This document shows positions 1 through 52,125 of a stretch of 52,125 nucleotides of DNA, in pieces. Within the stretch, counting starts at the first letter, position 1, and every line of letters starts with the position of its first letter. The position numbers and the translations under genes were made by a program. The notes below the pieces were generated by a model, which saw only the letters and a list, made by a program, of their open reading frames with translations, had not been told where the DNA came from and searched no databases. The stretch comes from a virus (Duplodnaviria > Caudoviricetes): positions 1 to 52,125 of IMG/VR virus record IMGVR_UViG_3300025642_000006. One strand, 5' to 3'.

Positions 1-121
1 TGGGCGAAATGAACATTGCCGGGATGGTTCCGTCTCCATTCGCCGAGCCATCGAGGTGCCCGCGTATGAGTGATCTGTTGCTATGGTCGAGAGATCGGAA
101 GTTCGGATTGTCTCTGAATGA
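1..121. repeat. Terminal direct repeat (identical to 52005-52125); circular-assembly overlap
   Basis: tgggcgaaatgaacattgcc...tctctgaatga is present at both ends, 121 bp; an ORF reads continuously across the join. Confidence 0.95.
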
Positions 122-560
122 GACCATTCTGCTGGAGGGACTAAAGGAATGCACGGATTCCGGTTCCGAAGAAACTGGCGGCATACTTGTCGGCTATTAC
201 ACGCCCGCGCACGATTGCGCCGTTGTCACCGCACTCGGCGGACCGCCGGAGGACTCCATCCGTGGGCCGAGGCTCTTTGAACGAGGGACAAAAGGCATCC
301 AACGCTGGATTTCCCGTCTGTGGCGGGAACAGAGGCACTTCTATCTTGGTGAATGGCATTACCACCCAGGAGGAACGCCTGTTCCCAGTCCGGACGATAG
401 AGAGCAGATGCAGAAATTGAGTAAGGACAGAAACCTGAAATGCCCAGAGCCCATATTGCTGATCATTGGCGGAAACCCAAGAGGAGCGTGGATAGCGAAA
501 GCGTATGTTTTTCCTGTGGATAAAGAATATGTCGCACTGACGGCAATGGGGCGGAGGTGA
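66..560 (+). CDS. JAB/JAMM (Mov34/MPN) metallo-isopeptidase, CBASS Cap3-like; can also be read from ATG 51971 across the circular join
   Basis: EETGGILVG ... YLGEWHYHPGGTPVPSPDD is an intact E...HxHx7Sx2D JAMM motif; GAGGTG RBS at 53-58 precedes ATG 66. Confidence 0.9.
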   Translation: MSDLLLWSRDRKFGLSLNETILLEGLKECTDSGSEETGGILVGYYTPAHDCAVVTALGGPPEDSIRGPRLFERGTKGIQRWISRLWREQRHFYLGEWHYHPGGTPVPSPDDREQMQKLSKDRNLKCPEPILLIIGGNPRGAWIAKAYVFPVDKEYVALTAMGRR

Positions 561-652
561 TTATGCAGGCCATCCCGTACACGGATTTTCCCCTTGAGGA
601 GATGAAAATATGGGTACAGAATGGCGTGATGATGCTGCCGTCTGAGTACTAA
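536..652 (+). pseudogene. C-terminal fragment of a DUF6876-like protein (could be re-initiated at ATG 563 as a 29-aa peptide)
   Basis: Frame reads TDGNGAEVIMQAIPYTDFPLEEMKIWVQNGVMMLPSEY*, matching the DGNG...QxIPYTDFPL...LPSEY C-terminus I recall for DUF6876; GGAGG at 553-557. Confidence 0.7.
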
Positions 653-678
653 ACCAAAACGACACGAAAGGGAATCCG

Positions 679-1059
679 ATGAAAATCAGCATAACGACAG
701 ATGAAACGAGAGTCTCCGAACTTGTGAAGAGCGGTGGGTGGGCATACACCCACCGCTACAACCAGACGCAGTGCGGATGTGATGCTATTGAACACATGTT
801 GGTAGAGGCTATAAACAGGCCGGCGATCATTGCAAGTATTCTAGCAGCGTCTTACGACCAGAACCCGGAATACGTGAAGGCAGCCCGCGCCGCCCTGGGC
901 ATGACGCAGGCCGAGCTTGCCGAATCGCTGGGCGTGGCGACCGATACAGTATCCTCGTGGGAGCAGGGGGAGCGGAACCCCTCCGCACCTGCCAAGAAGC
1001 TCATTGACATGATGACTAAGCGAACGAAGAAGAACCGACCAGCATCCACCAGTACATGA
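679..1059 (+). CDS. XRE/Cro-family helix-turn-helix regulator (C-terminal HTH)
   Basis: VKAARAALGMTQAELAESLGVATDTVSSWEQGERNPS is a canonical HTH_3 pattern; AAAGGGA RBS. Confidence 0.88.
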   Translation: MKISITTDETRVSELVKSGGWAYTHRYNQTQCGCDAIEHMLVEAINRPAIIASILAASYDQNPEYVKAARAALGMTQAELAESLGVATDTVSSWEQGERNPSAPAKKLIDMMTKRTKKNRPASTST

Positions 1060-1097
1060 AAGCGTACTGGTACTGAAAAGCGTACTGGTTCCCCCAG

Positions 1098-1133
1098 ACG
1101 GCCCGTGTTTAACCGCACGGGCCGTTTTCTTTC
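1098..1133 (+). terminator. Rho-independent terminator of the JAB-XRE module
   Basis: acggcccgtg / cacgggccgt 10-bp stem followed by tttctttc. Confidence 0.75.
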
Positions 1134-1155
1134 CCATTTCCAACCGGGCACGGAT

Positions 1156-1460
1156 GGAACGGAATAATTACCCGCGATATATTCCGTTTCTCGAATGACA
1201 ATAAAAACCGCACAAACACGGCATAGGATTGCATTTCACAAACGGAACGGAATAATTACATTCCTATTTCTCCGATGGCCGCCACCCGATATTGGCTTAT
1301 CCCACCAAAGCGGAAAACCCCCACTGTACTGTGCAAGGTGTGCGCCTAACTGTGCATGGTGTGCAGCAAACTGTGCAAATTGCACGCTTGCCCGAGGTTT
1401 TGCCGCTCTTTGTTCCCTAGTTTGCGCTCTGTGTGCCTTAGTGTGTGCCTAACTTGTGTC
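1156..1460. repeat. Non-coding repeat tract: 2x GGAACGGAATAATTAC and phased TGTGC motifs
   Basis: 16-mer at 1156-1171 and 1244-1259; ~21-bp units actgtgca(a/t)ggtgtgc.. from ~1328. Confidence 0.7.
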
Positions 1461-1792
1461 TATTCGTGTGCTACATATCCACCCTGCCTCATAATCCAAT
1501 CAGCTTCATTAGCATAGCGCACATCAGTGAACGCTATATCCCCTGCTGGCAAGGGCTGAACAGCCTTAATCCAGTAGTCGGGGTCTTCAAGCCTGCGCGA
1601 CCTTCCAAGCGAAACCATTAGATGCCTATACTCCTCCTTTTTTGCCTGTAGTTCATCAATAGTAATCATTAGTGTGTCGGCCAATTCTCGCTTTAATGGA
1701 TCAGCGAATGCTACCCTAGTAAAGGTAGATGGAAGAGCATCAAATGCTGTATCCTTACCAACCTTGCTATATCCTGCGAATCCTATAATCAT
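1460..1792 (-). CDS. Deoxynucleoside monophosphate kinase (T4 gp1-like), apparently C-terminally truncated
   Basis: IIGFAGYSKVGKDT P-loop, FADPLK, DPDYWIK, FTDVRYANEADWI..GG; ends at only 110 aa. Confidence 0.8.
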   Translation of the reverse strand: MIIGFAGYSKVGKDTAFDALPSTFTRVAFADPLKRELADTLMITIDELQAKKEEYRHLMVSLGRSRRLEDPDYWIKAVQPLPAGDIAFTDVRYANEADWIMRQGGYVAHE

Positions 1793-2052
1793 GTTCTATT
1801 CCTTAACTTTGCACATTTATACAGTTCCTCAGCACCCATAAAATCAAAGATTTTCTCCATAACATCCTTTCGGTATAACGCTGGAATCCCCTCTATAAAA
1901 GTGCCTTTCCACTCTTCAGGAATATCAGCATACTCTCTAGCCATTCGTGCGATGTATTTGCATGAATAGTCCGGGTCGGTCCTGTCAACTTTTACACGGT
2001 CTATGGTAGTTCGTTTTATTCCTAACTGCGCCCTTCCGTTCATTTTCTGCAC
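1789..2052 (-). CDS. Hypothetical protein
   Basis: Overlaps neighbours in the leftward operon; AAGGAG RBS. Confidence 0.6.
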   Translation of the reverse strand: MQKMNGRAQLGIKRTTIDRVKVDRTDPDYSCKYIARMAREYADIPEEWKGTFIEGIPALYRKDVMEKIFDFMGAEELYKCAKLRNRT

Positions 2053-2249
2053 TCCTTAATCATTCGGTTTATTGCCTCCCTAAGTACCGGCCATTCAGCG
2101 GAATCTACTCGAATCTTGTTTTCAAGTTGTGAAACCTCGACGAACTCTCCACACGCTTCGTCAACAATAGTCACGGTGAACATCGCTTCATCGAATACTG
2201 CCATTCCCTCTGGTCCTACTATTACTTGCGTAGTTCTGATTTCGATCAT
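2040..2249 (-). CDS. Hypothetical phage protein (MIEIRTTQVIVGPEG...)
   Basis: AAGGAG RBS, coupled to neighbours. Confidence 0.65.
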   Translation of the reverse strand: MIEIRTTQVIVGPEGMAVFDEAMFTVTIVDEACGEFVEVSQLENKIRVDSAEWPVLREAINRMIKECRK

Positions 2250-2458
2250 GCCAGACACTCCTTTGTTTTGCCGCCGCTCAAATTGGCGTCTGCCATATAC
2301 TTTGCGTACATACACCAGCATTCCGCCTCGCAATCAATCCTGCACATTACGCCGCACCCGCCGGGGTGTTCCCATCCTTCGGAGTCCGCCGGACACGAGC
2401 CGGTCTTGTCTGCCAGCAGCCTTCCGGCAGCCAATAAAGCATCTTTGTATATCGTCAT
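2246..2458 (-). CDS. Small Cys-rich hypothetical protein
   Basis: ATG 2458 abuts upstream stop; CP...C...C...C..CW pattern. Confidence 0.55.
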   Translation of the reverse strand: MTIYKDALLAAGRLLADKTGSCPADSEGWEHPGGCGVMCRIDCEAECWCMYAKYMADANLSGGKTKECLA

Positions 2459-2646
2459 TATTCTGTGCTCCCTTCTCGCTCCTTTTTTTTGCGCCCCTCC
2501 CTCATCTTGGCTACCCAAAACGGGGTCGGCTCTTCCGTGTGTTCTTTAAGCAGCGCACCGCTTGCGTTGGGCGGCAACACCAGCTTCGAGCCGACATCAT
2601 CCCACCAGCGCAACGCTTCTGTCATCATCTCGTTTGCTTGTTTCAT
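2458..2646 (-). CDS. Hypothetical protein
   Basis: GAGGAAGAAGGG upstream; operon packing. Confidence 0.5.
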   Translation of the reverse strand: MKQANEMMTEALRWWDDVGSKLVLPPNASGALLKEHTEEPTPFWVAKMREGRKKKEREGSTE

Positions 2647-2681
2647 ATCTTCCCTTCTTCCCTCGAATTGGCTACATGGCC

Positions 2682-2936
2682 CTAACTGGCGTTGGGTGCG
2701 AGTGAGATGATGAGTGAAAATAGCGAATCTGCACCCATGTTCCCACTATCGCCAGACTCGTTAAACAAATGCCACTTTCGATCCTGCCACCCAATTTTCC
2801 CGCCAAGTGTAACTTCGCGCTCAATCTCAAGGCAACCATCCTTTAAGCAGCAAACCAGATTCGTCGAGTCTACGGCGCGCCGCGTCTTGTTGAGGCGATG
2901 TAAATCTTCTCGCTGATCATAAATCTTTTCAGTCAT
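2682..2936 (-). CDS. Hypothetical protein
   Basis: AAGGAG RBS; operon packing. Confidence 0.55.
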   Translation of the reverse strand: MTEKIYDQREDLHRLNKTRRAVDSTNLVCCLKDGCLEIEREVTLGGKIGWQDRKWHLFNESGDSGNMGADSLFSLIISLAPNAS

Positions 2937-2937
2937 T

Positions 2938-3189
2938 TCATACTCCTTCTGAGTCGCCGAGACTCACAATGTCGTTAGCCTGCTCAATGATTTTTATGAT
3001 TTGATCGAGGTCTTTTGTCATCTGACGGTAATCCTCTTGATACGTTCGGCGGGGTTCGTCTTCCCACCAATCACGCAAGGCTCGTAAATCCTCGCAGTGA
3101 TCGCGCAAGCTTTCAGCCAAGCCCAGCGGCAGGCTAACCAGCCCATCGAGGCTGCGGGGTGCTCCGGTCGTTTTATCTTTGTCGCTCAT
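2938..3189 (-). CDS. Hypothetical protein
   Basis: AAGGTG RBS; overlaps upstream stop. Confidence 0.6.
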   Translation of the reverse strand: MSDKDKTTGAPRSLDGLVSLPLGLAESLRDHCEDLRALRDWWEDEPRRTYQEDYRQMTKDLDQIIKIIEQANDIVSLGDSEGV

Positions 3190-3494
3190 AATTCACCTTT
3201 CGTTTTGTTCCGAGCCTCATCGGTGTCGTTCGGAAACATCTCAAAAATATCCACCACGGCTTGCTGAGCCACTATATTCGCTTTGTCTTTATACTTGCCA
3301 TCGCACGGGGCATTTAAAGCACCGGATCGAATTGCCCACCATACATCATTCTGCGCTTGGCCAATTAGGTGCTTCATTTTCGGATCCGCCTTAAACATCG
3401 CGAGGCGTTTCTTTGCCAGTCGTTCTTTTTCCTTGAATGATTTTAGACGAACAGCTTTCTTCTCTTCGGTGTAAGGGTTGTATTCCTTGCTCAT
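3186..3494 (-). CDS. Hypothetical protein
   Basis: AAGGAAGG RBS; operon packing. Confidence 0.6.
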   Translation of the reverse strand: MSKEYNPYTEEKKAVRLKSFKEKERLAKKRLAMFKADPKMKHLIGQAQNDVWWAIRSGALNAPCDGKYKDKANIVAQQAVVDIFEMFPNDTDEARNKTKGEL

Positions 3495-3890
3495 TTAGCC
3501 TTCCTTTCGTTCGTCGATAAGGTTGCACTTTGGGCAGTAGCAAAGGACCCTGCCCATTTCGCTCATGCCGTAACGATTAGGCGGGAAGGTAAATTCTGAA
3601 CCGCAAGCAGGACAAAGCTGTTTAGAGGAACGCGCCTTCGGCAGCCGCGCATCGCCACCCTTTGCCTCCCACTTATCGCAGTTCGCTTTCCACGCCTGAC
3701 GCGTGCTTCCCGTTCCATTGCACTCGAATGTTCTTCTGTGGTACGACGGGATTAGGAAATGTGTGCACGTCGCGCATGTTCTCGTTTCCGGGTTCATAGG
3801 GCACCAAGCTTCATGCTTCACAGATGCGGCTCTCGTTGCGTAAGGCGCACCATGCTGACAATAAGCACAAGTATATGATTCCGTTGGCAT
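3495..3890 (-). CDS. Multi-zinc-finger hypothetical protein
   Basis: CAYC...HEAWC, CATC, CPAC...CPKC motifs. Confidence 0.65.
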   Translation of the reverse strand: MPTESYTCAYCQHGAPYATRAASVKHEAWCPMNPETRTCATCTHFLIPSYHRRTFECNGTGSTRQAWKANCDKWEAKGGDARLPKARSSKQLCPACGSEFTFPPNRYGMSEMGRVLCYCPKCNLIDERKEG

Positions 3891-4225
3891 TACTGAACCT
3901 CTCCTGTCCTGTGATGGTACGCATCAACCCAGTCGATAAACCCTGCGTCTTTGGCCAGCTTGTCGGCTCCGCGTTTGACTTCTGCCTCGCTGTTTTCGCT
4001 TGCTGGCCACGGGTCCGAAACCATAATCAACTCGCACAGGGCAAAGAGGAACGGATTGCTTTCTGCCCGCTTCTTATACGCTCCGCACCAGTCGTTTTTA
4101 GAAAACCACGCTTTATTCTTCCGACAGTCACCCCAGTCGTCATCCTCATGTACTCGATCGAAATACCTGCACGACTCGCAATTTCCCGCATAGTCTTTTT
4201 TACTAGTCTTCATGTTTACCTTCAC
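3890..4225 (-). CDS. Cys-motif hypothetical protein
   Basis: CESCRYF...GDCR...DWCG pattern common in phage small proteins. Confidence 0.6.
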   Translation of the reverse strand: MKVNMKTSKKDYAGNCESCRYFDRVHEDDDWGDCRKNKAWFSKNDWCGAYKKRAESNPFLFALCELIMVSDPWPASENSEAEVKRGADKLAKDAGFIDWVDAYHHRTGEVQ

Positions 4226-4234
4226 TTTCTTCCA

Positions 4235-5131
4235 TTAACTATATTTCAATAACGTGTGGCCGCTATTTGTATTTTCAAAGATGCTTCTCACCTTCGATAC
4301 GCCTAAAAGCATCTTGAAGAACTCAACCTCATGATTTGTTATTCTCCTCTTGATGCGTTTGAGCTTTCTAATAGCCGCTGCCTTTACAATGGCAGAACGC
4401 TTAGAAACCTTCTTGCCTATACCTAATGCGTCGGCCACCATGCGTCCATACTCAGGGCCATAACGTGCATTTAACCATTTGATACGCTCTATATCGGAAT
4501 AGACAATGGGGTCCTTTTCGTAAAAACAAGGTGTGTGAAGAGGAAATCTTTCTCTCATGGCAGAAGATAACCTAGTTAGTTTCTCCTCTTTGCACGATTC
4601 ACAGCGGCGATATTGAACATTCTTATATCCAGAGCCTCCCTTTATCCACCGATCGTAATTCTCATCTAATATGTCTCCTACTCCCTTATCATGCAGATAC
4701 AGAGAATGATCATATACATCCCATGTTATATCAAGGAGTGCACTCTCTTCATCAGGATATTCGATTTCGAGTCGTCCGCATATAGGACACCTAAATAACT
4801 TATCTGCGAATATAACCGTTAATATGTCGCTTGGTTGTTTAGGCGTCCTATTCCAGCGTGTTTCATAGGTATTAGGTGTGTCCGTATATTTAGGCCATTC
4901 AATCTCCATTCCATAGTGGTTACCGTGATAATAATCGTGATCGCGATAATCCGACCGGTTGCCGTTTATTACATTTTCATGTCCTCCTACAAACAACCCA
5001 TTGATTCCACAGGTTGTGCAATAGCTATTTATTCGATAGCGAGAACCTTCCTTACATGCCTTAAATATCCTTTGATTCACATAGAGATGACCGTACATCC
5101 TACTAATTATGATAATTCCATTAGGCTTCAT
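4235..5131 (-). CDS. Hypothetical protein with CxxC pairs
   Basis: 298-aa ORF; CTTC, CPIC, CESC. Confidence 0.65.
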   Translation of the reverse strand: MKPNGIIIISRMYGHLYVNQRIFKACKEGSRYRINSYCTTCGINGLFVGGHENVINGNRSDYRDHDYYHGNHYGMEIEWPKYTDTPNTYETRWNRTPKQPSDILTVIFADKLFRCPICGRLEIEYPDEESALLDITWDVYDHSLYLHDKGVGDILDENYDRWIKGGSGYKNVQYRRCESCKEEKLTRLSSAMRERFPLHTPCFYEKDPIVYSDIERIKWLNARYGPEYGRMVADALGIGKKVSKRSAIVKAAAIRKLKRIKRRITNHEVEFFKMLLGVSKVRSIFENTNSGHTLLKYS

Positions 5132-5132
5132 G

Positions 5133-5759
5133 TTACATCCTTAGAAGTATGTCTTTCAGTTCGCGCTCGGTTAGTGATAATCCACGCCGAAACATAACTG
5201 TCTTACCAGTTATTCTGTATCCAAGCGGCTCGGCATCAAAGCTGCGTTTAGCAGCCTCAGCTTGTATAATAGACTTCTCCGACTCTAGCCACGCCTTTTG
5301 CTCAGAATCGCCTCTAACGTGATCCTTAGCGAAGGTCTGCCTAGATTGCTCTGGGGTTAATTCCTTTACATTGACTAGCAACTTATCTCCACTAGCTAAA
5401 AGCAGTGATATAGGCTCGGATAGATATTTCTCTTGCTGATGATATGGACATTACGCTAGCCGCTTAATTCCGGGAGCCGAGCTACATAGCATAAGCGGAT
5501 GAATCCCTCGTTTGCCTAGCGAATAGAATCGCATGATTATATGCTCATCAAGTCCAGTTTTATCAATAATCATTCCGATTGAATTAGGGTCGTCATCCAA
5601 TATGGTTGCAATAATCGTTCCTGCTTCAACCCAACTTTCTATTCCGCTAGTTATCAACGCACCGATTTGTTCGATTAGCCCTTCTTTATATTTTGGGTCT
5701 ATTCTCATTTTCTCAATCATGGATTCGCCTGCATCTAAGGATTCTATAACTTTATTCAT
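5133..5759 (-). pseudogene. Single ~208-codon gene split by an in-frame TAA (5451-5453)
   Basis: ORFs 5451-5792 and 5133-5381 share a frame; the gap reads *CPYHQQEKYLSEPISLLLASGDK with no further stop. Confidence 0.7.
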
Positions 5760-5760
5760 T

Positions 5761-6012
5761 TCATTCTCCTGCTTGTTTACTGTCCATTCCATACGTTAAC
5801 AAGTCAACCCCTTCATGTATGGATGAATGGGCGTATACGCACTCTCTCACCGGCTTCATATCTCCATTAGCAGTTAGCACTATTCGCGTGTTGTCTAACT
5901 TCCCGTGCTTATTTATGCACGGCCTTACGACTGTAACTTTATCTCCATAATCACGAACTATTATATGCTCGTATTGGTCCTGAAACTTACATGGGATAGC
6001 TGTTATTTTCAT
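5761..6012 (-). CDS. Hypothetical protein
   Basis: GGAG RBS before ATG 6012. Confidence 0.55.
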   Translation of the reverse strand: MKITAIPCKFQDQYEHIIVRDYGDKVTVVRPCINKHGKLDNTRIVLTANGDMKPVRECVYAHSSIHEGVDLLTYGMDSKQAGE

Positions 6013-6026
6013 TTCATCTCCATCGT

Positions 6027-7325
6027 TTATAATACAATGCTCTCGGCCAGCGTGTAGGCTCCTGTAATGTAATCCCAATGGAATACTACCTTACCTATAG
6101 AGCCTATATTCTTATCCCTCACCTTGGTTATGTGTACTTCGGTTTGTCCGTCGTTTGTTTGGTATGATCTCCAGATGCTAATTCCTACATCCGCCTTGTT
6201 GCGGAAGTTCGCGGACCCAGATATATCATAAAGAGTTGGCACCCTATAGTCCCCATTATCTAGCGGAATCATCTTGGTAGGATGGGCTACTAGAATCATT
6301 TCTATATTATGCAGCCTTCCAAAGTTTCTCAGCTTAGATAGAAACTCGGATATATATTCCGTCTCGCTCATCTTGGGTGATCGTTTATGTTCCAGTTCAT
6401 TATATGGATCAATGATGCAGGAATCGCAGCCATACTTTTTCTTAATTAGCCGTATTTTATTTAGCAACCTATCCAGCGTCATCCCCGACTCTTCGGGTGT
6501 AATGATGGAGATATGCTCTGAAAGGTGTTTTAAGGCACCGTCACGCTCTTTCTGGCTCATAGGTGGATAATGATTGCGCTCAAACATTGGCTTGCCTACA
6601 AACTTCTCTGCTAGCTTCTGGAAGTGATTCTGCAAAGGATAGTTCTCAGGCGAGAATATTGCATACTTCCATTTATGATCTCGTATGGCATTGATAACGA
6701 TCTGATCTAACCACTCGCTCTTCCCACTCGAAGGTATTCCGGTAACTATTACCAATGTTCCATGCCTATGTTTCCAGTGGGCATCCATACGCTTCCAGCC
6801 TGTAGTAATACCTGCTGATAGTTCTGGATTTTTTATGTAGTCATTGATTGCGCTGGAATAGTCCGAGAACTTAGCGACCCGTGAGGACTCATATCCAGAA
6901 GCAGTCGTCATATCGGAAAGCCTGCCCATGATGTACTCGGATAGTTCGCCAGAGTTTTCCTCCTTAGAGCGTGAACACATTTCTACGCCTAGCTTAATCA
7001 TCTTGCGCTTAGTGGTACACTCTTGCAACTCCTTCACATAGTGGCTGATATTATCCGGCACAGCGTAGGAATCCAATATATCATCAAACGTAAGTGGATC
7101 AACAGAATCCAGCGATACATACTTCGCTCTAACGGTTGATATGTCTATGGGTTCATCATTCGCTATTAGCTCGTTAATACATTGCCAGCACAAGATATGT
7201 GATGGAACAATAAAGTCATCGCCGGATATGCCCGAACCCAAGACTTTATCATTAACCGAGGAATACTCGGTCATTACGCAAACAAGCACGTTTCTCTCTA
7301 TCTCGTTTTGTCCTAACTCGCTCAT
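6027..7325 (-). CDS. Replicative SF4 helicase (DnaB-like N-domain + T7 gp4/Twinkle-type motor)
   Basis: Walker A TGIPSSGKSE, FSPEN, IIDPYNEL, LVAHPTK, LYDISGSANFRNKAD; N-terminal DnaB-like F..PSH..W..I..L....PID. Confidence 0.9.
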   Translation of the reverse strand: MSELGQNEIERNVLVCVMTEYSSVNDKVLGSGISGDDFIVPSHILCWQCINELIANDEPIDISTVRAKYVSLDSVDPLTFDDILDSYAVPDNISHYVKELQECTTKRKMIKLGVEMCSRSKEENSGELSEYIMGRLSDMTTASGYESSRVAKFSDYSSAINDYIKNPELSAGITTGWKRMDAHWKHRHGTLVIVTGIPSSGKSEWLDQIVINAIRDHKWKYAIFSPENYPLQNHFQKLAEKFVGKPMFERNHYPPMSQKERDGALKHLSEHISIITPEESGMTLDRLLNKIRLIKKKYGCDSCIIDPYNELEHKRSPKMSETEYISEFLSKLRNFGRLHNIEMILVAHPTKMIPLDNGDYRVPTLYDISGSANFRNKADVGISIWRSYQTNDGQTEVHITKVRDKNIGSIGKVVFHWDYITGAYTLAESIVL

Positions 7326-7337
7326 TATTCCTCAATT

Positions 7338-7715
7338 CTACGGTTCGCATTTGAATTTGTAGATTTTAAGATCACCTACGGTTAATGCGTTTAGCATCTT
7401 CACATCCTCTCCAGTGATGATGAAGGTATAATCCGTCACAAGAGAGCCAAGATACTCCCTAGTTTTAGCTAAGAGCTTCTCGTAATGTGCAAGCGCTGCC
7501 GCCTCATCTCTCGATGCAGAGATATATTCTTCCTTTGTTTGGGATGTATCGAACAGGGCATCTGAAGAAGCATCCAATAGCTCCTGCCATGAAGTATACG
7601 CATTCGATAACTCAACTACTTTAGACTCCTTTCCTTCTAGGAACCTAATTAGTGCTACACTTCTGCAAGCTGTATCAGAGCGTATAAGTGAATCAATAAT
7701 TCTATCCGCATTCAT
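7338..7715 (-). CDS. Hypothetical protein
   Basis: AAGGGAG RBS; 125 aa. Confidence 0.6.
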   Translation of the reverse strand: MNADRIIDSLIRSDTACRSVALIRFLEGKESKVVELSNAYTSWQELLDASSDALFDTSQTKEEYISASRDEAAALAHYEKLLAKTREYLGSLVTDYTFIITGEDVKMLNALTVGDLKIYKFKCEP

Positions 7716-7724
7716 ATTTCTCCC

Positions 7725-8426
7725 TTATTTTGAGTAGGTGACAGACCATAGGTAGATGTCTCTGCGTGATTCAGCAGGAACATCATTTAGACACTTATGG
7801 CCGTGCTGCTTCATAGCTTCCTCAATAGTTCCTTCTTTCTTCTCTTCCAACACCATCATGGATGATTTGAAGCGTTCGAGCTTATCTTCGTCTTGGTCTG
7901 CAACTGGAGTCAGTGCCGACGCTTTCTTGATGGGGACTTTAGGGACAGCCTTCACCATAGGCTCAGGGAGGCTATTAGGAGCCTCCTCAGAGTATTTGCT
8001 ACCCTTGAACCAGTAAACATCCGCTCCAAGCCCCAACACCTTCATAGCGACGCTTAGGGCATCCGTAAGGGCCATCTTGTACGCCTCGTCTGAATGGTAT
8101 AGTCCGTTCTTCTCGCTGGCTACTAGCATGGACCCGCCTACTCCATCAATTCCGGCACTCCATTCTCCATCCACCTTTACCCATAGACGTACATGAACAT
8201 GTGATGCTCGTGTTTTCACTGAATCCTTCACATCCGCTTCATCCGTCCAGAAACGGATTACCTCGAACTTCCATCCGAACCCAACTGGTCCGAAAGTCTC
8301 TGTCATTTGGCGATATCTCCATAATGGAGATATGTCAGTCATTCCAGACAGGCGTCCGCCTTTGATTTCTTTTTTCGCTTCATTAGGCACTGATTGAAGC
8401 TGTTTCCAAACAGTTAAATTACTCAT
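7725..8426 (-). CDS. Rad52/Rad22 (Sak)-like single-strand annealing protein
   Basis: TDISPLWR..MTETFGPVGFGW...GVGGS...DEAYKMALTDALSVAMKVLGLGADVY; AAGGAG RBS before ATG 8426. Confidence 0.8.
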   Translation of the reverse strand: MSNLTVWKQLQSVPNEAKKEIKGGRLSGMTDISPLWRYRQMTETFGPVGFGWKFEVIRFWTDEADVKDSVKTRASHVHVRLWVKVDGEWSAGIDGVGGSMLVASEKNGLYHSDEAYKMALTDALSVAMKVLGLGADVYWFKGSKYSEEAPNSLPEPMVKAVPKVPIKKASALTPVADQDEDKLERFKSSMMVLEEKKEGTIEEAMKQHGHKCLNDVPAESRRDIYLWSVTYSK

Positions 8427-8526
8427 TGCATTCTCCTTTGTTTTAGGGAGTAATGCGCCCGGCACGACAACCACGGCGCACCTCCAAGATAATTATTCAT
8501 CCTCTATTTGCTGAACTTTTACAAGT

Positions 8527-8970
8527 CTATACTACGAACTTGCCGCCCTGCACGGGCTTTCCTCCTTGGGTTTTGCTGTTATGTCTTGTCTTCCAAGTTC
8601 TAACAGCGGCCTTCCAATCCGCCATTACTTTATCTTTTATTTTCCACCCTCGTGTTTGATAGTAGTCAACGAACTTGTTTCCATCTATTTCGAAGCCTAT
8701 TGTAGCTCCGTATGCAGTTACTTCTTCTGGTACTGGCGGTTTAAACCTGCGCTTGTGATCAACATCTAATTGGTGAAGTGGACATCCGATCATTGCGCGT
8801 GGATACAATCCATTAACCTTGTCAATGGAAGTAGCTCTACAAAAGGCGAAGAACTCACCCTTGAAACTAATTGTAGATAGAAGCTCGCACCGCCCAGACG
8901 AATAGGAACACATAGGTATTCCTCCTTCATCGAAGAAGCGCTCATATTCACGGAACACTGAATCCTTCAT
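8527..8970 (-). CDS. Phage replisome-organiser/initiator-like protein
   Basis: C-terminal FKPP..EEV..Y.......F.DYY..RGW......M.DWKAAVRTW motif. Confidence 0.7.
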   Translation of the reverse strand: MKDSVFREYERFFDEGGIPMCSYSSGRCELLSTISFKGEFFAFCRATSIDKVNGLYPRAMIGCPLHQLDVDHKRRFKPPVPEEVTAYGATIGFEIDGNKFVDYYQTRGWKIKDKVMADWKAAVRTWKTRHNSKTQGGKPVQGGKFVV

Positions 8971-8971
8971 A

Positions 8972-9716
8972 TTATGCCTTCTGAATAGTTTTCCACGAAT
9001 TGTTCAACTCAGCGATACGGTACGCATAGGAGAAATACTCCCATCCATATTTTAGTTCCTGCTCCGACCACTCCTTGAATAGAAGCATCTCTCCAGACTC
9101 CCTTGAGAAGTATACGTTTGCACACTTCGCATTAGGGAATTTAGTCCCTAGCCGATAAGCGGCTAGCTGCGCCACTTCCCTCAATTTTGGGATCACGCCC
9201 ACCTTCACCAACTGTTTTCCAGTCGAGCAGCCATGTTGGAGATGCAATGTCCGGCGTACCACCAAAGGCATAGTGAACACCTTCAACCTCGCCTTTGAAT
9301 ACGAAACACGCTTCCGAATCGTATGCAGACAAGTGCCTATCCAATAGGATTCCTGCTGCCGCCTTACACGCATTAGCTAATGCAGGATCACCAGGAAGCG
9401 TTCCAGTCTTTAGCGTCATCTCTATAGCACCATGATATTCTGTGCCCCTGTTAGCAGCCTCTTCCCGTCTAGCTGCACATAGCGCCATTCCCGCCTGTAC
9501 GTTCCCGGCTTCTACTCCGGCCTCTACGGCCAGCTTAGCCACCCACTGGAGCAATCCCCCTATCTCAGACGCTTGATCCAAGATAGTGTTGACGCTTTCA
9601 ACAGCTCCATCAACTACGGCCTTTGCTCTAAGCACACGCTTAGACTCTTCGCCGTTCTTTTTAAGTTGAATATAACGCTTCGCCCCGCTAACGGTCTGAA
9701 CATACCAATGACTCAT
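8972..9716 (-). pseudogene. PD-(D/E)XK exonuclease-like gene interrupted by a +1 frameshift near 9185
   Basis: SVNTIL, RGTEYHGAIE, GGTPD..LLDWKT in one frame; EVAQLAAYR...CANVYF in the next frame. Confidence 0.75.
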
Positions 9717-10111
9717 GCTTCCTCCTCTTCTTGCCCACAAACAGGGCAGGGTTTTAGTTCATACTTACCGGCTTCTTCCGCCGCACCTTCGATAGAATCA
9801 TACGCTTTGCGCAGATTCCCTATCCACACACTGACATACCCCTTCCCATCACACTCGTGACATACAGCAATGCTACAGGTACGCACCTTGCGATTAGTAA
9901 CGTGATCAACTACCGATTGCCGTTCTTCCAGAATGCCATCAGCGATCATTTCCGTAATACGTGGTCGGACATAATTCATATCACTCATGCCGAGCCTATT
10001 ACAGACTTGCCGATCAGTGAGAGTCGCCGATCCATAGGCTTCATATATTACTTTCTTTCTAGCTGATGGCTTTAGCTCGTCCCATGCAGCGAGGCTGTTT
10101 TCATGTATCAT
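9713..10111 (-). CDS. Winged-HTH DNA-binding protein with C-terminal Zn-finger
   Basis: LTDRQVCNRLGMSDMNYVRPRITEM; CHEC...CPVC. Confidence 0.65.
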   Translation of the reverse strand: MIHENSLAAWDELKPSARKKVIYEAYGSATLTDRQVCNRLGMSDMNYVRPRITEMIADGILEERQSVVDHVTNRKVRTCSIAVCHECDGKGYVSVWIGNLRKAYDSIEGAAEEAGKYELKPCPVCGQEEEEA

Positions 10112-10120
10112 GGCTCTCCT

Positions 10121-10396
10121 TTATATTTTAATTATCAGCGCATATATTGCATTCTTCAATGCCTGCTCTAAATGCTGATTCATATCCGATATAGCATAGT
10201 CTTTTCCAAGTCCTGTTTCCCCGGCGATAGCGCACATCGTATAATAAACATACGCATAATGGGGAAACTTCTCTGTGGTATATGGCTCAAGAAGCGACGC
10301 TGCGATCCGCTCATCCAACCCTTTCCTCAATGAGGACAAGCGTTGAATCATATCCGTTTGACGCTCTAGTTCTTGAATCTGCTTTTCTTTATCCAT
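10121..10396 (-). CDS. Hypothetical protein
   Basis: AAGGAG RBS. Confidence 0.6.
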   Translation of the reverse strand: MDKEKQIQELERQTDMIQRLSSLRKGLDERIAASLLEPYTTEKFPHYAYVYYTMCAIAGETGLGKDYAISDMNQHLEQALKNAIYALIIKI

Positions 10397-10878
10397 TACC
10401 TACTCCTTTGTTTTGCTTCATTGCTCGTTCACATCTTTCTACCCAGACAATGAAAGATAGTTCGTCTAGTTGCTTGTCCGTGTAATATGAGATAACGGCT
10501 TCTATCTCCGGTACACTTGGCACATTTGGTTTATTCATTATGCTCCTTTACTAATTACTATTGTTTCTCCAACGATTCGGACTTCCAGCCTGTCCCCTAT
10601 AGAGAACAATTCTTTAAGCCAACGTCCTCGCAAACGGAGTAATGGACACTTTTCAGAGCTAAGCCATCCTAATGTGATTTTAGTCCTCATTAGCCTCTCC
10701 TTTGTTTATATCAGCTCGAACAGATAATCCGGCTCTAAGCCGAAATACTCCTCGCAGAAGTATTCCGTATCTTGACCTTCTTCTATTCCCTGCCTCAGCT
10801 CCCGCGAAGCTGCTGCAATTTCCTTGTCTGCTTCCTCTTCCGACATCCCATCACGGTCCATCAAAACCTGCTTTAAAC

Positions 10879-11406
10879 TCATGACTTCTCCTCTTCCCGT
10901 TTTTTAAGACACGCTGCACACATTTCGCCTTTCCCATATTGGATAAGTGCATCGACGTACTTCCCGCACCGGGAACACCATATCTTAATGCTCGGAATCC
11001 TTTCATAGAGCGAGTCAATACACGCCTTGGCCTCAGCGGCCACAAACTCCTCGGTGTATTCCCTTCCTTCGTCCCAAATGTGCTGGTAGTCGCACCCGAT
11101 TTTTACGCATTGTTTTTCTCCGTCGAATCCAGTTACTTTTGAGTACCGCGTCATTCCACTATGCCAGTCTAAGTTAGACATAAGCGGCTCGGAGTAGTAA
11201 TCATAATGGATAAAAGACAGATTCGATTCCTTCGGATCCAACCAGAAACGCTCTCTAATATCTTCTGGGAGCGAGTCTATGAGAATGAAAAGATAGAACG
11301 TCCAGCACGCCTTGTCGAACCGTGTAAAACGTTGTATCTCGAACGAAATGCCTTTATATTTTCCAGCCCATACGGTTTTTTCTTCCATGTCTTGTGTCAA
11401 ACTCAT
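10879..11406 (-). CDS. Hypothetical phage protein with C-terminal Zn-ribbon
   Basis: WHSGMT.Y...IGCDYQHIWD motif; CSRC..CAAC; AAGGAG RBS. Confidence 0.7.
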   Translation of the reverse strand: MSLTQDMEEKTVWAGKYKGISFEIQRFTRFDKACWTFYLFILIDSLPEDIRERFWLDPKESNLSFIHYDYYSEPLMSNLDWHSGMTRYSKVTGFDGEKQCVKIGCDYQHIWDEGREYTEEFVAAEAKACIDSLYERIPSIKIWCSRCGKYVDALIQYGKGEMCAACLKKREEEKS

Positions 11407-11603
11407 GACTTCTCCTTTCATGGTGTACTTCTTGTTCATAATGCTCCCTTCGCTGTTTTTGCAGGCCCATGACTTTCAGTCCCGTTCCAATCCCTGCCAT
11501 AATAGCCAGGGTGATTATGAAGGCCGTATAAGCCTTCCCGGTCAGCTTTATCAGCCATATAGTAAAGTCTTCAATCATATCTTACCCTCCTCATGTTATG
11601 CCA

Positions 11604-11697
11604 TAGAACACGTTTTAAGGTGTCTAGGAGCGATTATTGCACTAAAGGCATATATAGACCTGCCTAATAGCGCCAAACCCCTTCTAGGTGCCTCTAT
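11604..11697 (+). repeat. Dispersed ~93-bp hairpin element, copy A
   Basis: Similar to 51208-51300 (same strand) and 12777-12869 (inverted). Confidence 0.65.
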
Positions 11698-12289
11698 GCA
11701 CGATTGCAGCCATTAGCCGAAAGAAGCGTAATTGCTTACTTGCTCTCAAGGCATCCTGCGGCATCGAGCGCCTCCCAGTCAGACGGATGTGGGCAACCGA
11801 TGGCAACGACGATTAGAGCTCCGTGTTTCTGTTTCAGTTTCATGTTCATCTCATTTCCTCCAACTGGTGTTTCCGTCATTCGTGGTTATCCAGTACCACG
11901 CCTGCATTCTCTCTTTTAGCAATCTCTCCACAGTGGAGAGGTGCCAGAAAGAACGTATTTACAGGGATTGAGATACATTCTTTCTGTATTCATGGTCTTA
12001 TTCTCCTTTGCGGCATTGCCGCTGGTTAGTGTACAGGCGCGTTGTGCGCGTGAGATTGTCTATTATGCGTTCAGCATCTTCAAATGCCATACCTATTGGT
12101 TCAGTACTGTAACGACAGAACGGATACGCGCTCTCAATCGCAAGTTGCGTATATGATAGCAAGTAGTTGCCTTGGCGATTGTTGTCTTTGCTGTTTTCAT
12201 GGTATTCATCCCTTCTAGGCTATTGTTAATACTATATAGTGCCTCATAAATACACACCCCTCCGGACACCACCACCCCCCCTAAATATT

Positions 12290-12403
12290 TGCACACCCAA
12301 CCGCAGCACGTATTTAGCGACGCCCTCATCTGCGAGAGCCGCTCCCAGGACGTGAGCCTTGCTATAACTTGGCAGGCCGAAGGTAAGCTGCACACCCAAC
12401 CGC
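12290..12403. repeat. 15-bp direct repeat TGCACACCCAACCGC x2
   Basis: Copies at 12290-12304 and 12389-12403 in the divergent non-coding region. Confidence 0.75.
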
Positions 12404-12776
12404 TTGCACCGCAACAGCATGGATGTTCGCCGACGGGAGAGGCAGTGTCAGTGCTAACGTCACCGCCGGGGTGCCACGGGGTCCCCTTGCCCCCTCCGGC
12501 CATTAGGGGTGTTAGTAGGGAAACATCGCCGTACACTATGAGAATCGCCCTAAACCTGGGATGGCTAGTGGGTTGATATTATTGGGAAAGACTAAGCTAA
12601 GGGCGGTATTATTGAGATTGTGTTAGCTTGATTTTAGCTTGGTGGGTTTGTGTTGATTGAGTTGAGTGGGGTTTATTGGCATTGATGTGATGAAGTAGTA
12701 CTTTAGTATCACCTTGGGGAGATTATTTGGGTGGGTTAGTACAACGTCGCATAACACGAAAGATCGGGAAGGGGTA

Positions 12777-12869
12777 TTAGATGTGCGTAGAAGGGGGAGG
12801 AAGATTGAGCTAGGTCTTTATATGGGTAAATGCACAGAACGTCTTCTATGGGGCTTAGAACGTGTTTTA
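12777..12869 (-). repeat. Dispersed ~93-bp hairpin element, copy C (inverted relative to A)
   Basis: Shares tagaagggg, aggtct(a/t)tatatg, tgca, tta(a/g)aacgtgtt(c/t)ta with the reverse complement of copy A. Confidence 0.65.
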
Positions 12870-13274
12870 GAGGCACTGTAGGGGAGGGGGGTGTACGGGG
12901 GTGTAGATTAGCGGAGGGGTAGTGTGGGAAGTGGAGGATAGGTGGTAGAAATGCGGAAGTACAGAATCCGGCTATATATATAGTACAGTTGGTTAAGATA
13001 TAACACAGGGTAGATAATATATAAACACAGGGTATAGATAGTACATAGAGAGTGAGAAAAGAAACCCATCTTCCTATAACAAGAAAGAAAAATATAAAAG
13101 AAAGAATAAAAGGGTTTCTTCCCTTACGAGATGGGCAGTTAAAACACACTTTCGAGATGAGAGCTTGCCGAAGGTTCAAGCGGTCCATCGAGTGGGGGAA
13201 CCGTCGAGACGCTCGGCCAGCCTCGCTAAAGTTGTTGGTATGAATCTTGTGGAGAGATTGTGGAGAGATTTATG

Positions 13275-13303
13275 TTGACAGTATTTTGGGAAAAGCATAT
13301 AGG
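13275..13303 (+). promoter_or_regulatory. Putative sigma70-type promoter of the rightward operon
   Basis: TTGACA-17 bp-TATAGG upstream of ORF 13393. Confidence 0.5.
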
Positions 13304-13392
13304 CATAGGGTGTTGAAGGTGAATTAGGGAGCTTAGTTTTTATACGCTCGCAGTCAGGCAAGGACTTACGCTGATTAAGGCAGGAGGTTGTT

Positions 13393-51443: not shown

Positions 51444-51645
51444 ATTTCCCTTCTCCTTTTAATAGACAACAATTATCTGCTATGCCAGAATCTACGCTAG
51501 GCTGCGGCATGATTGAGAGGGCTTTGATAGCTTTTTCTGATAGGCAGATGGGCTCGCCGGACGTGATTGCATTTCCTTCCGGCAGCGTCCCTTCCGTTCT
51601 GGATTTTGTGGTCGGGCGTCACATGGCTTTCGTGTATGGGGTAAA

Positions 51646-51663
51646 ACTTGCGTGTGCGCAAGT
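51646..51663. promoter_or_regulatory. Inverted repeat, possible operator
   Basis: ACTTGCG-tgtg-CGCAAGT about 75 bp upstream of the promoter. Confidence 0.45.
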
Positions 51664-51736
51664 CTTTTTCTTTGTTTTGTTGTGTTTGTGTTCCGTTGGT
51701 TTGGAGAAAATAGTTTTAAAAAAGTGTAATTACCGG

Positions 51737-51765
51737 TTGACAAGGGCGGTACAATGTCCTATATA
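51737..51765 (+). promoter_or_regulatory. Sigma70-type promoter for the JAB-XRE module
   Basis: TTGACA-17 bp-TATATA with an A/T-rich UP-like region upstream. Confidence 0.7.
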
Positions 51766-51970
51766 TTATATTGACGATAAGTTATTCCAGATTGTGAATG
51801 GAACCATTAAGTGTGTTTAGGGTGTCCGCCGTCCGCCGTCCGGGGGTATTACATACCCCCCCGGACAGGACGGACAACGTACGAGAACACCAGACCGGAC
51901 AGAAAACGGACGTTGACCGGACGAGATGGAATAGGAATGGGAAAGCAACAAAACGAAAGGGAAAAAGAAC

Positions 51971-52125
51971 ATGAACGGAACAATCGCAGAGAAGACTGAC
52001 GGTGTGGGCGAAATGAACATTGCCGGGATGGTTCCGTCTCCATTCGCCGAGCCATCGAGGTGCCCGCGTATGAGTGATCTGTTGCTATGGTCGAGAGATC
52101 GGAAGTTCGGATTGTCTCTGAATGA
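51971..52125 (+). CDS. 5' leader ORF (MNGTIAEKTDGVGE...) fused in frame to the JAB gene across the circular join
   Basis: GAAAGGG RBS; ATG 51971 lies 14 codons upstream of, and in frame with, ATG 52013 (= position 9). Confidence 0.65.
   Translation, partial: MNGTIAEKTDGVGEMNIAGMVPSPFAEPSRCPRMSDLLLWSRDRKFGLSLN
52005..52125. repeat. Terminal direct repeat (copy of 1-121)
   Basis: Exact identity with the window start. Confidence 0.95.

Follow-up and report, generated by a model that had tools for sequence, protein, structure and literature searches.

A phage-borne cap3 gene cut from a bacterial cap2-cap3 operon, a candidate anti-CBASS factor in a mobile cassette

Why does a phage carry one gene of a bacterial CBASS operon without the rest of the system, and how did it come by that gene? 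We address this question for a short ORF near the start of a 52,125-nt window, i.e. the whole stretch of DNA analysed here (IMG/VR record IMGVR_UViG_3300025642_000006, Caudoviricetes). With its 121-nt terminal repeat, the window is circular, and it represents a phage genome of 52 kb that is rated 100% complete; no PF00589 integrase was found in it. The cyclase, the effector and a full Cap2 are absent from this complete genome. When the host effector, CD-NTase and Cap2 were compared to the whole window with tblastn, only a 16-residue stub of Cap2 was detected, and the next best match had an E-value of 0.37 or worse. The initial annotation had described a stand-alone gene far from the tail module. 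The gene does stand alone, whereas the distance does not hold, as the circular window places cap3 only about 900 nt past the last ORF of the rightward late arm (50795–51151). A blastn search for distant matches of window positions 1–1100 among GenBank phages gave no match. We also looked for a relative of the phage that lacks the locus: a scan with the HTH protein encoded after cap3 yielded 68 loci, all of them generic HTH matches of short extent (68 of 126 residues at most), two exact DNA patterns matched a sibling contig only, and a helicase scan matched three fragments of the same phage only.

The ORF had been read as a Cap3-like JAB isopeptidase with an intact JAMM motif, and both parts of this reading agree with our searches. 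The PADLOC JAB model PDLC00890 matches with an E-value of 5.9e-48 over model positions 3–151 of 157, and Pfam Prok-JAB scores 39 bits against a cut-off of 25. The residues of the motif E...HxH...S..D (E36, H98, H100, S108 and D111) all fall in invariant columns when 30 family members are aligned. Among 827 scored candidates, 786 matched at an E-value of 1e-3 or better; 29 of the 120 listed carry a name given by their source, which is TIGR02256 in 27 cases. The AF2 model of the protein has a pLDDT of 91.7, and its top match in the PDB is 9ILD chain A, entitled 'Complex structure of Cap3 and CD-NTase' (TM 0.76/0.81), followed by Rpn11-type enzymes with the JAB/MPN fold. The NCBIfam equivalogs score the phage protein below their cut-offs (NF050170, 47.7 versus 200 bits; TIGR02256, 57.9 versus 127.6 bits); the native host cap3 is expected to score much alike, because the two genes are identical over the parts compared.

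JAB domains are also found in tail assembly proteins of the lambda K type, where the domain is joined to an NlpC/P60 domain and the gene lies inside the tail module. We ruled out such a protein, as no NlpC/P60 domain was found, the match to a PHROG tail family is short (E-value 5.3e-4, restricted to the 34 residues 104–137), and the gene forms a unit of its own behind a hairpin and a promoter-like site. RadC (PF04002) stays below the Pfam cut-off in a 183-aa reading of the frame (E-value 0.13, 12.7 versus 22.1 bits), which otherwise matches Prok-JAB only. The closest relatives are CBASS Cap3 proteins, and not the lambda K-like tail proteins that the initial annotation had named among the findings that would speak against its proposal. 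Judged by family, the ORF is a CBASS Cap3-type protein, without being part of any CBASS system.

The origin of the gene can be traced in the bases around it. A second frame just upstream reads ...DGSVSIRRAIEVPAYE* and overlaps the cap3 start (ATGAGTGA); both features are present, and the suspicion that this frame is the stub of a coupled upstream gene was borne out by tblastn (Table 1). The frame follows a stop at 51997–51999, extends over just 23 codons and contains no start codon. A co-occurring native operon is found on the metagenome contig L101, which encodes a SAVED-nuclease effector, a CD-NTase, Cap2 and the start of cap3, and which matches window positions 23–142 in 120 of 120 bases. 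Contig L100 matches positions 422–541, again in 120 of 120 bases, and then diverges into the native cap3 tail; together, these native operon contigs are letter-identical to the phage over the 240 nt compared. In the cellular loci L001, L002 and L101, the gene order is effector, cyclase, Cap2, Cap3, with cap2 and cap3 overlapping by 8 nt. Homology of the phage to such type II CBASS operons begins within cap2, 44 nt from its 3' end, and ends just before the cap3 stop. The stub agrees with the MAG locus L001 in 43 of 44 bases, and no DNA match to either of the two MAGs was obtained for the remainder of the phage. On the strength of these alignments, we conclude that the phage gene is a Cap3 gene cut from a cap2-cap3 operon.

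The flanks of L101 and L100 had no match in the MAG loci. Among named hits, a histidine kinase encoded near the donor operon finds its best matches in Spartobacteria (56%), Opitutae (51%) and Lentisphaerae (48%), which is a weak taxonomic pointer. From co-occurrence and identity only, we infer that the donor bacterium is the host of this phage.

The captured DNA is embedded in a compact unit (Table 1). Its left part contains a terminator-like hairpin (51646–51663) with a T run, followed by promoter-like hexamers: TTGACA at 51737–51742 and TATATA at 51760–51765, separated by a 17-nt spacer. A near-consensus sigma70 promoter had been proposed at 51737; hexamers and spacing are there when read from the sequence, whereas a consensus scan, which did report the hairpin at 51646–51663, did not list the site. 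Similarly, the hairpin after the HTH gene was not listed by a consensus terminator scan. Between the promoter-like site and the ribosome-binding site lies a 151-nt segment that is absent from L004/L081, L082 and L083 and is carried by a 365-nt contig of run X18; the RNA fold predicted for the 5' region did not reach significance (z -1.71). Use of the in-frame ATG at 51971 would add 32 residues and result in a Cap3 of 196 aa. At the other end, the phage gene is native up to base 541 and is cut 31 nt before the native gene end. The last nine native codons (the native protein ends ..TDDGNFMQCQ) are replaced, and the phage gene closes with five new codons (AMGRR) and a new stop. The 30-nt joint at this end is absent from L083 and L100, and in the assembly graphs of runs X3 and X12 the joint region is a 90-nt piece of its own.

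Table 1. Features of the cap3 locus, given as positions in the window.
Feature	Position	Strand	Details
Left part of shared cassette	51595..51779	+	98.9% identity to L083 2691-2875, flanks unrelated
151-nt segment unique to this variant, between promoter-like site and ribosome-binding site	51780..51930	+	G+C-rich hairpin
Mobile-element leader	51971..52026	+	ATG in frame with cap3, 18 codons ahead of captured DNA; leader joined to cap3 also in L083
Relic of cap2 3' end (last 16 codons + stop), not a gene	23..70	+	Frame 2, no start codon; 100% identity to host Cap2 residues 597-612
cap3, putative JAB/JAMM isopeptidase, 164 aa	66..560	+	ATG 66, TGA 558-560; GAGGTG 7 nt ahead of ATG
30-nt joint specific to this arrangement	542..571	+	cap3 stop, GGAGGTG ribosome-binding site, ATG of next small ORF
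29-aa ORF, C-terminal end of DUF6876	563..652	+	PF21781, E 1e-10, profile positions 90-117/117
126-aa XRE-type HTH protein, candidate cassette regulator	679..1059	+	HTH_3, E 4.4e-11; phrog_2104, E 1.1e-16
Perfect 10-bp inverted repeat followed by TTTCTTTCC, likely terminator of unit	1098..1135	+	Inverted-repeat search; tail read from the sequence

This unit is not confined to the phage. The segment consisting of promoter, leader, stub and cap3 recurs with 615 of 615 identical bases in the integrase-bearing element L083/L099. L083 and the window have only four blastn segments in common; the remainder is unrelated and includes an integrase-like gene and a gene for a 1711-aa RadC-JAB protein. An HTH coding sequence follows cap3 in both settings. 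Window positions 572–1038, a range that covers most of the HTH gene of the phage, are 99.1% identical to L083 1927–2393. The L083 cap3 ORF (2913–3818, with the leader joined) runs on into an HTH region. L082 presents a third arrangement of the cassette. The occurrence of the unit in an otherwise unrelated element therefore argues that the cassette moves between mobile elements. From the compared sequences, we conclude that it is a mobile unit built on a stolen host gene, in which the final 44 nt of cap2 and almost the whole of cap3 were placed behind a mobile-element promoter and leader, and that at least two unrelated mobile elements within one community carry it, i.e. the 52-kb integrase-less phage and the integrase-bearing element.

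We considered that the phage arrangement arose by insertion into a 46-aa DUF6876-like gene with an 8-bp duplication, ACTGACGG, of which copies are present at 51995–52002 and 536–543. This model was rejected, as L083 keeps 23 more native bases and differs downstream. Moreover, of the eight bases in the right copy, six belong to native cap3 in the host contig L100, and the DUF6876 tail lies upstream of the cassette in L083. From the native bases in L100, the extra native bases in L083 and the position of DUF6876 in L083, it follows that the 3' joint of the phage is a secondary event. The alignments thus identify the phage cassette as the derived form, in which cap3 was trimmed and given a new stop. 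Since the ready-made cassette is shared with an element that keeps more of the native gene, the phage copy is probably second-hand. The initial annotation had proposed that the phage took only the negative regulator from a host cap2-cap3 operon; this is correct regarding the origin of the gene, whereas the route into the phage was probably less direct, given that the cassette is common to another element.

What could the phage gain from such a gene? In bacteria, Cap3 reverses the priming step of CBASS immunity. The initial annotation had inferred that the phage expresses the gene early to switch immunity off. The most likely role, in which we place moderate confidence, is counter-defence by deconjugation of the host cyclase. 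During infection, the cassette would make extra Cap3, a zinc JAMM isopeptidase, which would bind the C-terminal tail of the host CD-NTase and cut the CD-NTase from Cap2-made conjugates. Removal of the primed cyclase pool would result in less second messenger, the SAVED-nuclease effector would stay silent, and the phage would complete its cycle. The substrate specificity would be ready-made, because the gene is the host's own. The downstream HTH protein may regulate the cassette, similar to the regulators in anti-CRISPR operons. The wider proposition, that an anti-CBASS cassette of promoter, host Cap3 and HTH regulator circulates among unrelated elements and disarms type II CBASS by stripping Cap2-made conjugates, is one that we regard as evenly balanced.

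This role is consistent with published experiments. The accessible part of one study reports that overexpression of Cap3 abolished CBASS defence (the CBASS used is not given there), that cyclase conjugates disappeared and cGAMP synthesis dropped more than 200-fold, and that cleavage is specific for the C-terminus of the cognate cyclase (10.1101/2022.03.31.486616). In addition, we modelled the phage Cap3 in complex with the host CD-NTase. The complex scored 0.86, compared to 0.01 for the best of three controls; the score mark applied is reached by 58 of 80 solved complexes and by 2 of 110 mismatched pairs. Three runs agreed in at least 97% of contacts, with a partner pLDDT of at least 87. In the model, the C-terminal residues 349–367 of the CD-NTase touch Cap3 residues 36, 98 and 108–111, i.e. 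the predicted active site, and Cap3 residues 11–13 are part of the interface as well. The replaced C-terminal tail is predicted to lie outside the interface, because no contact is listed past Cap3 residue 150. The passing score may reflect likeness to the solved complex 9ILD only, and it would then speak for likeness and not for activity. We note that Cap3 is altered at both ends, by a possible N-terminal extension and by the replaced tail, which counts against the functional reading, as do the hairpin-bearing 151-nt segment ahead of the gene in this variant, the absence of the promoter-like site from the consensus scan and the NCBIfam scores below cut-off.

An alternative that we regard as unlikely, yet worth weighing in detail, is that cap3 is a neutral passenger, i.e. 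host DNA that an accessory region prone to recombination acquired through an illegitimate exchange, and that is carried along with HTH genes without benefit. Both ends of the captured DNA are ragged, with remains of cap2, a fusion to the leader and loss of the native stop; several arrangements of the locus occur in the assembly graphs, and the continuation of the L083 ORF into an HTH region is what an unselected fusion might look like. The letter-identity to the host copy furthermore indicates a very recent event that left no time for decay, and the gene is thus too young to reveal selection. The dN/dS of the phage cap3 is 0.22 versus L001 and 0.13 versus L002 (L001 versus L002, 0.136), where the value of 0.22 mostly reflects cellular history and is uninformative on selection after the capture. 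Against a passenger stands the finding that two unrelated backbones share the junction and the leader, which recur in three arrangements with the reading frame intact throughout, and that the phage variant has gained its own stop as well as a ribosome-binding site for the next ORF. Lone Cap3-like genes also recur in other phages (L009 and MW202482.1). Finally, the stretch has persisted: 18 of the 23 listed runs contain at least half of the sampled words, and all 18 are labelled salt lake metagenome and span 2017–2019; the RNA-labelled runs X19 and X20 contain 0.08 of the sampled words.

It is also conceivable, though in our view improbable, that extra Cap3 acts as a modulator and not as an off-switch: by releasing or recycling the cyclase, it would raise or retune CBASS and thus exclude rival phages or avoid self-triggering. 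The effect of Cap3 depends on the CBASS system, and published work disagrees on whether it damps or supports defence. For a B. cereus system, the available part of one report proposes that PspA conjugation keeps the cyclase inactive and that release by Cap3 primes it (PMC11153139); for an E. coli CdnG system, the part of another report at hand describes a loss of defence when Cap3 is inactive (PMC12991175), and a review states that Cap3 is required against some phages. The carrier L083, having an integrase-like gene, could reside in a host. The window phage, in contrast, is complete and integrase-less, and a role in protecting the host therefore does not fit it. In addition, the donor operon is of the SAVED-nuclease type and its cyclase ends in FA, which resembles the E. 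cloacae cyclase, whose C-terminus (C-terminal peptide Phe-Ala) is the site of cleavage by its Cap3 according to the accessible text (10.1101/2022.03.31.486616).

Much less probable still is a broad deconjugase directed against another ubiquitin-like defence, for instance Bil-type tagging of virion proteins, instead of the CBASS cyclase. JAB enzymes do work in several bacterial ubiquitin-like systems, as far as the source portions at hand describe them, and the lone JAB genes of L009 and MW202482.1 are located in head modules; however, the phage gene equals CBASS cap3 at every comparable base, the cleavage specificity for the cognate cyclase tail reported above is high, and the complex model places that tail in the active site. 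Lastly, a chimera of host reads misjoined into the phage contig has a negligible probability. Host, phage and second element do have about 520 nt of identical sequence in common, which tangles the assembly graphs. In the four runs examined, none of them flagged as a possible source, independent contigs nevertheless span the 5' junction in three (X3, X12 and X16) and the 3' junction in two (X16 and X18), and a second viral contig and several metagenome contigs contain the same joints (the parts of L004 that lack cover in runs X16 and X18 were left out of this evidence).

We return to counter-defence as the preferred reading. The phage cap3 is a strong candidate for a new way to switch CBASS immunity off, as suggested by its sequence and origin. 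If true, it would represent a new mechanistic class of anti-CBASS factor, namely enzymatic de-priming by a stolen regulator, and the cyclase C-termini and the specificity of Cap3 would be under arms-race pressure. Overexpression of Cap3 showed that the ubiquitin-like priming step is a weak point, and the locus suggests that mobile elements exploit this weak point in nature. The record is unusually clean, since one community contains the donor operon, the two joints of the capture, a form that looks ancestral and one that has been trimmed. The sequences of all parts for a reconstitution are available (L101 supplies effector, cyclase and Cap2, and the phage and L100 supply Cap3), and the reconstituted donor system could help to decide whether Cap3 damps or supports CBASS in SAVED-nuclease systems. 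The locus is furthermore a reason to search phage genomes for regulators of defence systems that stand alone. No phage Cap3 was found in the literature searched, and surveys in supplementary files may list lone Cap3 genes.

When comparing the phage gene to known systems, the nearest are the Cap3 proteins of type II CBASS (V. cholerae VC0181/TIGR02256, E. cloacae Cap3 and 9ILD), with which it shares family, fold and JAMM residues. In L101, L001 and L002, cap3 directly follows Cap2 in the operon, whereas the phage gene is alone, has a mobile-element promoter and leader, lacks the native C-terminal codons and is followed by an HTH gene. Its architecture may correspond to that of acr-aca-type anti-defence operons, in which a promoter, a small anti-defence gene and an HTH regulator gene form one unit; the order of promoter-like site, cap3, HTH gene and hairpin is present here, with a putative promoter and terminator that the consensus scans did not list, and the comparison concerns architecture only. 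The known anti-CBASS factors comprise the nuclease Acb1, the sponge Acb2, the CD-NTase inhibitor Acb3 and the effector inhibitor Gp15; as described in the available part of the source, these target the nucleotide signal, the cyclase or the effector, and none is directed at the ubiquitin-like priming step (10.1101/2025.07.23.666291). Like them, the phage Cap3 is phage-borne and expected to block CBASS signalling; in contrast to them, it is proposed to act upstream of nucleotide synthesis, using a regulator of the host to strip the Cap2-made priming conjugate enzymatically. Viral copies of host off-switches exist in other defences, such as the viral ring nuclease AcrIII-1 and phage antitoxin mimics like pseudo-ToxI. 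The logic is the same, in that the invader expresses the negative regulator of the defence system itself, whereas the defence and the chemistry differ, and for the phage cap3 both the donor operon and the joints of the capture can be seen directly. The JAB genes of MW202482.1 and L009 likewise stand alone; these are 34–38% identical, have no visible donor and lie among terminase, portal or head genes, whereas the phage cap3 is a fresh capture in a self-contained promoter-HTH cassette.

The novelty of this locus is that the capture of a cap3 gene and the spread of the resulting cassette can both be read directly from sequence. The captured gene encodes a protein of 164 aa (window 66–560) that scores 39 bits against the Pfam Prok-JAB profile (cut-off 25) and matches the PADLOC JAB model PDLC00890 at 5.9e-48 (model positions 3–151 of 157), in support of the Cap3-like identity proposed in the initial annotation. 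The PADLOC models of E1-E2-JAB fusions align to it with their JAB end; its scores against the narrow NCBIfam equivalogs NF050170 (47.7 of 200 bits) and TIGR02256 (57.9 of 127.6 bits) are below cut-off. In a family search, 786 of 827 scored candidates reached E 1e-3 or better; among the 120 candidates listed, 29 were named by their source, 27 of them as TIGR02256, to which V. cholerae VC0181 belongs. The JAMM motif is intact as claimed, with E36, H98, H100, S108 and D111 all in invariant columns of an alignment of 30 sequences, whose C-terminal tails past the last strand vary in length. Among solved structures, the AF2 model (pLDDT 91.7, pTM 0.88) is most similar to 9ILD chain A, 'Complex structure of Cap3 and CD-NTase' (TM 0.76/0.81); Rpn11-type deubiquitinases rank next. 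Tail JAB proteins, the relatives that would have spoken against a defence-related origin, are not the closest homologues, because the PHROG tail match is marginal (E 5.3e-4, 34 residues only).

The two best genome loci for cap3 lie in a Hydrogenedentota MAG (L001, 85% amino acid identity) and a Desulfocapsaceae MAG (L002, 79%). In both, cap3 sits 3' of Cap2 in a full CBASS operon, in the order SAVED-endonuclease effector (510–524 aa), CD-NTase, Cap2 (611–612 aa) and cap3, with an overlap of 8 nt between cap2 and cap3. The DNA homology of the phage to these operons starts 44 nt inside cap2 (window 22/23) and ends at about 539–541, and the 44-nt cap2 relic is identical to L001 at 43 positions. 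The frame-2 stub has no start codon and is preceded by a stop at 51997–51999; since the homology starts inside cap2, it is the Cap2 C-terminus, as the suspected remnant of a coupled upstream gene. The phage encodes no effector, CD-NTase or full Cap2, and its remaining 51.5 kb has no DNA match to the two MAGs. With joints inside cap2 and near the cap3 end, the phage gene is a cap3 excised from a cap2-cap3 operon.

A metagenome scan detected a native operon on contig L101 (effector, cyclase and Cap2), whose proteins are 92–94% identical to those of L001 and whose Cap2 ends in ...DGSVSIRRAIEVPAYE. L101 stops 120 nt into the shared stretch (120/120 identical to window 23–142); contig L100, whose name has a common prefix with that of L101, begins 120 nt before window 541 (120/120 identical) and goes on into the native end of cap3 with its stop, beyond which lie bacterial genes. 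This identity covers the two 120-nt ends, the 279 nt between them being outside the host-context contigs; that both contigs break off 120 nt into the shared stretch presumably reflects the behaviour of assemblers at repeats. The nearest full-length cellular cap3 copies have 89–92.5% DNA identity to the phage. In L101 1–2511 and L100 160–7133, the flanks of the donor operon are unrelated to those of the 93–95% identical operons of L001 and of a further operon-bearing locus (L088), so that the donor operon is a mobile island itself. A nearby histidine kinase gives a weak hint of a Verrucomicrobia-like bacterium.

We searched sequencing runs with sampled words of window 1–1100. At least half of the words occurred in 18 of the 23 runs listed, all 18 labelled salt lake metagenome (2017–2019). 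Two of the 18 are possible sources of the record, and junction contigs were checked in four other runs against the sibling contig of the phage (L004, where position 8001 is window 66). The 5' joint is bridged by contigs in runs X3, X12 and X16, and contigs of X16 and X18 bridge the 3' joint. Since these runs are not among the possible sources, we exclude an assembly chimera. Assembly graphs branch exactly at window 541, where one branch is a native-like tail (5333-nt contig, depth 9.5, the phage path having 11.3 in X12). A second branch point, at window 572, leads to a different upstream sequence (3595-nt contig, depth 11.1), and a third lies near window 51598.

The cassette also occurs in a second mobile element, L083, which is extended by L099 (overlap identical at 7136/7136). 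L083 has only four segments in common with the window, the leader-stub-cap3 block counting as two overlapping ones. Its cap3 retains 23 more native bases than that of the phage and ends 8 nt before the native stop; because the capture removed this stop, leader, Cap3 and a second, XRE-type HTH region form one in-frame 301-aa ORF (L083 2913–3818), which may represent a genuine fusion of Cap3 with an HTH domain or a scar left over from the capture. In the phage, cap3 is cut at 541, and the 30 new bases that follow provide its stop codon together with a GGAGGTG ribosome-binding site and the start codon (ATG) for a 29-aa ORF. The 5' joint and leader are common to both forms and L083 has more contiguous native sequence; we thus conclude that the L083 form is ancestral-like and the phage form derived. 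Contig L082 carries a third arrangement. These findings contradict a simple duplication-flanked insertion. On its minus strand (3891–10473), L083 also encodes an integrase-like protein with an Arm DNA-binding domain and a protein of 1711 aa that has a RadC-like JAB domain and looks similar to polyvalent proteins, a type that conjugative elements and phages carry.

Coordinates of cassette segments, repeats and lone Cap3-type genes
Feature	Position	Location	Remarks
Promoter region	window 51595–51779	left cassette edge 51595	common to L083, 98.9%
151-nt segment with G+C-rich hairpin	window 51780–51930	between promoter-like site and cap3 leader	in this record and one X18 contig
Leader-stub-cap3 block	window 51931–541		common to L083, 615/615
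DUF6876 tail and HTH gene	window 572–1038	upstream of cassette in L083	common to L083, 99.1%
Direct-repeat families	window 1052–1087, 1149–1259, 1328–1390, 1441–1454	right after HTH gene	units 18 nt, 23 nt, 3 x 21 nt, and 14-nt family
Lone Cap3-type JAB	L009 (IMG/VR locus) 5929–6381	phage head module	adjoins portal-like gene; no adjacent Cap2
Lone Cap3-type JAB	MW202482.1 (GenBank phage) 41275–41721	phage head module	between carboxypeptidase and hypothetical genes; close to portal and Mu F-like genes; no adjacent Cap2

In the phage, the unit runs from a hairpin with a T run through TTGACA-17-TATATA, leader, cap3, a small ORF and the HTH gene to a hairpin. Judged by sequence, it looks self-contained, and its layout may parallel that of anti-CRISPR operons, which include HTH regulator genes. 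The near-consensus sigma70 promoter of the initial annotation stands as a pair of hexamers upstream of cap3; consensus scans list neither this promoter-like site nor the hairpin after the HTH gene. The sibling contig, L082 and L083 all lack the 151-nt segment, for which a small insertion element and a regulatory leader are both conceivable; its hairpin fold has a z-score of only -1.71. The short repeats after the HTH gene look similar to iterons or operator arrays; a replication origin or a region bound by a regulator could lie here.

The phage record is complete (52,125 bases; CheckV completeness 100%), with a direct terminal repeat of 121 nt (window 1–121 = 52005–52125). Its genes lie in a leftward arm (about 1460–13400), a long rightward arm (about 13400–51151) and a small rightward unit across the origin. 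They encode a terminase large subunit, a DnaB-like helicase, exonucleases and a dNMP kinase; the major-head match is weak, and no PF00589 integrase was found in the complete genome. The dNMP kinase ORF (1460–1792, minus) has 110 aa only, and its end coincides with the start of the repeat tract. Within a 1085-aa ORF (44464–47721), seven tandem 117-nt units (39 aa) occupy 46627–47628, with 65–93% identity to the reference copy.

Collections contain few lone Cap3-like genes. Among 50,697 GenBank phage records, only MW202482.1 has one (37.6% identity), and an IMG/VR search with the family alignment yielded four loci: the sibling contig, a full CBASS (L008), the lone gene of L009 and an E1-E2-JAB fusion (L010). 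The latter, 758 aa on a virus-classified contig (2906–6369), represents another kind of ubiquitin-like system, and the gene directly 5' of it encodes a weak match to LmuA. In the portions of the literature covered by our search, we found no report of a phage-encoded Cap3; the available text of one source names Acb1, Acb2, Acb3 and Gp15 as anti-CBASS factors (10.1101/2025.07.23.666291).

According to 10.1101/2022.03.31.486616, Cap3 cuts the cyclase out of the conjugates that Cap2 makes and is highly specific for the cognate C-terminus. When active Cap3 is overexpressed, CBASS defence is strongly counteracted, the conjugates disappear and cGAMP synthesis falls more than 200-fold. Our complex model of phage Cap3 with the donor cyclase scored 0.86 (best control 0.01), where the score mark is reached by 58 of 80 solved complexes vs 2 of 110 mismatched pairs. 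Contact agreement between runs was at least 97% and partner pLDDT at least 87. Cyclase residues 349–367 lie on Cap3 residues 36, 98 and 108–111, with no listed contact beyond Cap3 residue 150. Because 9ILD is already solved, the model is to be read as likeness and not as binding. We consider it rather probable that the cassette would flood the cell with cognate Cap3, and that this extra Cap3 would de-prime the host cyclase. Against this mechanism, work on a B. cereus system proposed that the cyclase is primed by deconjugation (PMC11153139), and inactive Cap3 loses defence in an E. coli CdnG system (PMC12991175). Also against it, the phage copy is so young that its conservation says nothing on selection, the protein may carry a 32-aa leader, the phage variant has a 151-nt insert ahead of cap3, and the consensus scans list neither the promoter nor the downstream hairpin. 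The main rival, that cap3 is a neutral passenger, seems unlikely to us. De-priming by cognate Cap3 remains our preferred reading, and the C-terminus of the donor cyclase (...GGRFA) is like the Phe-Ala end reported for the E. cloacae cyclase in 10.1101/2022.03.31.486616.
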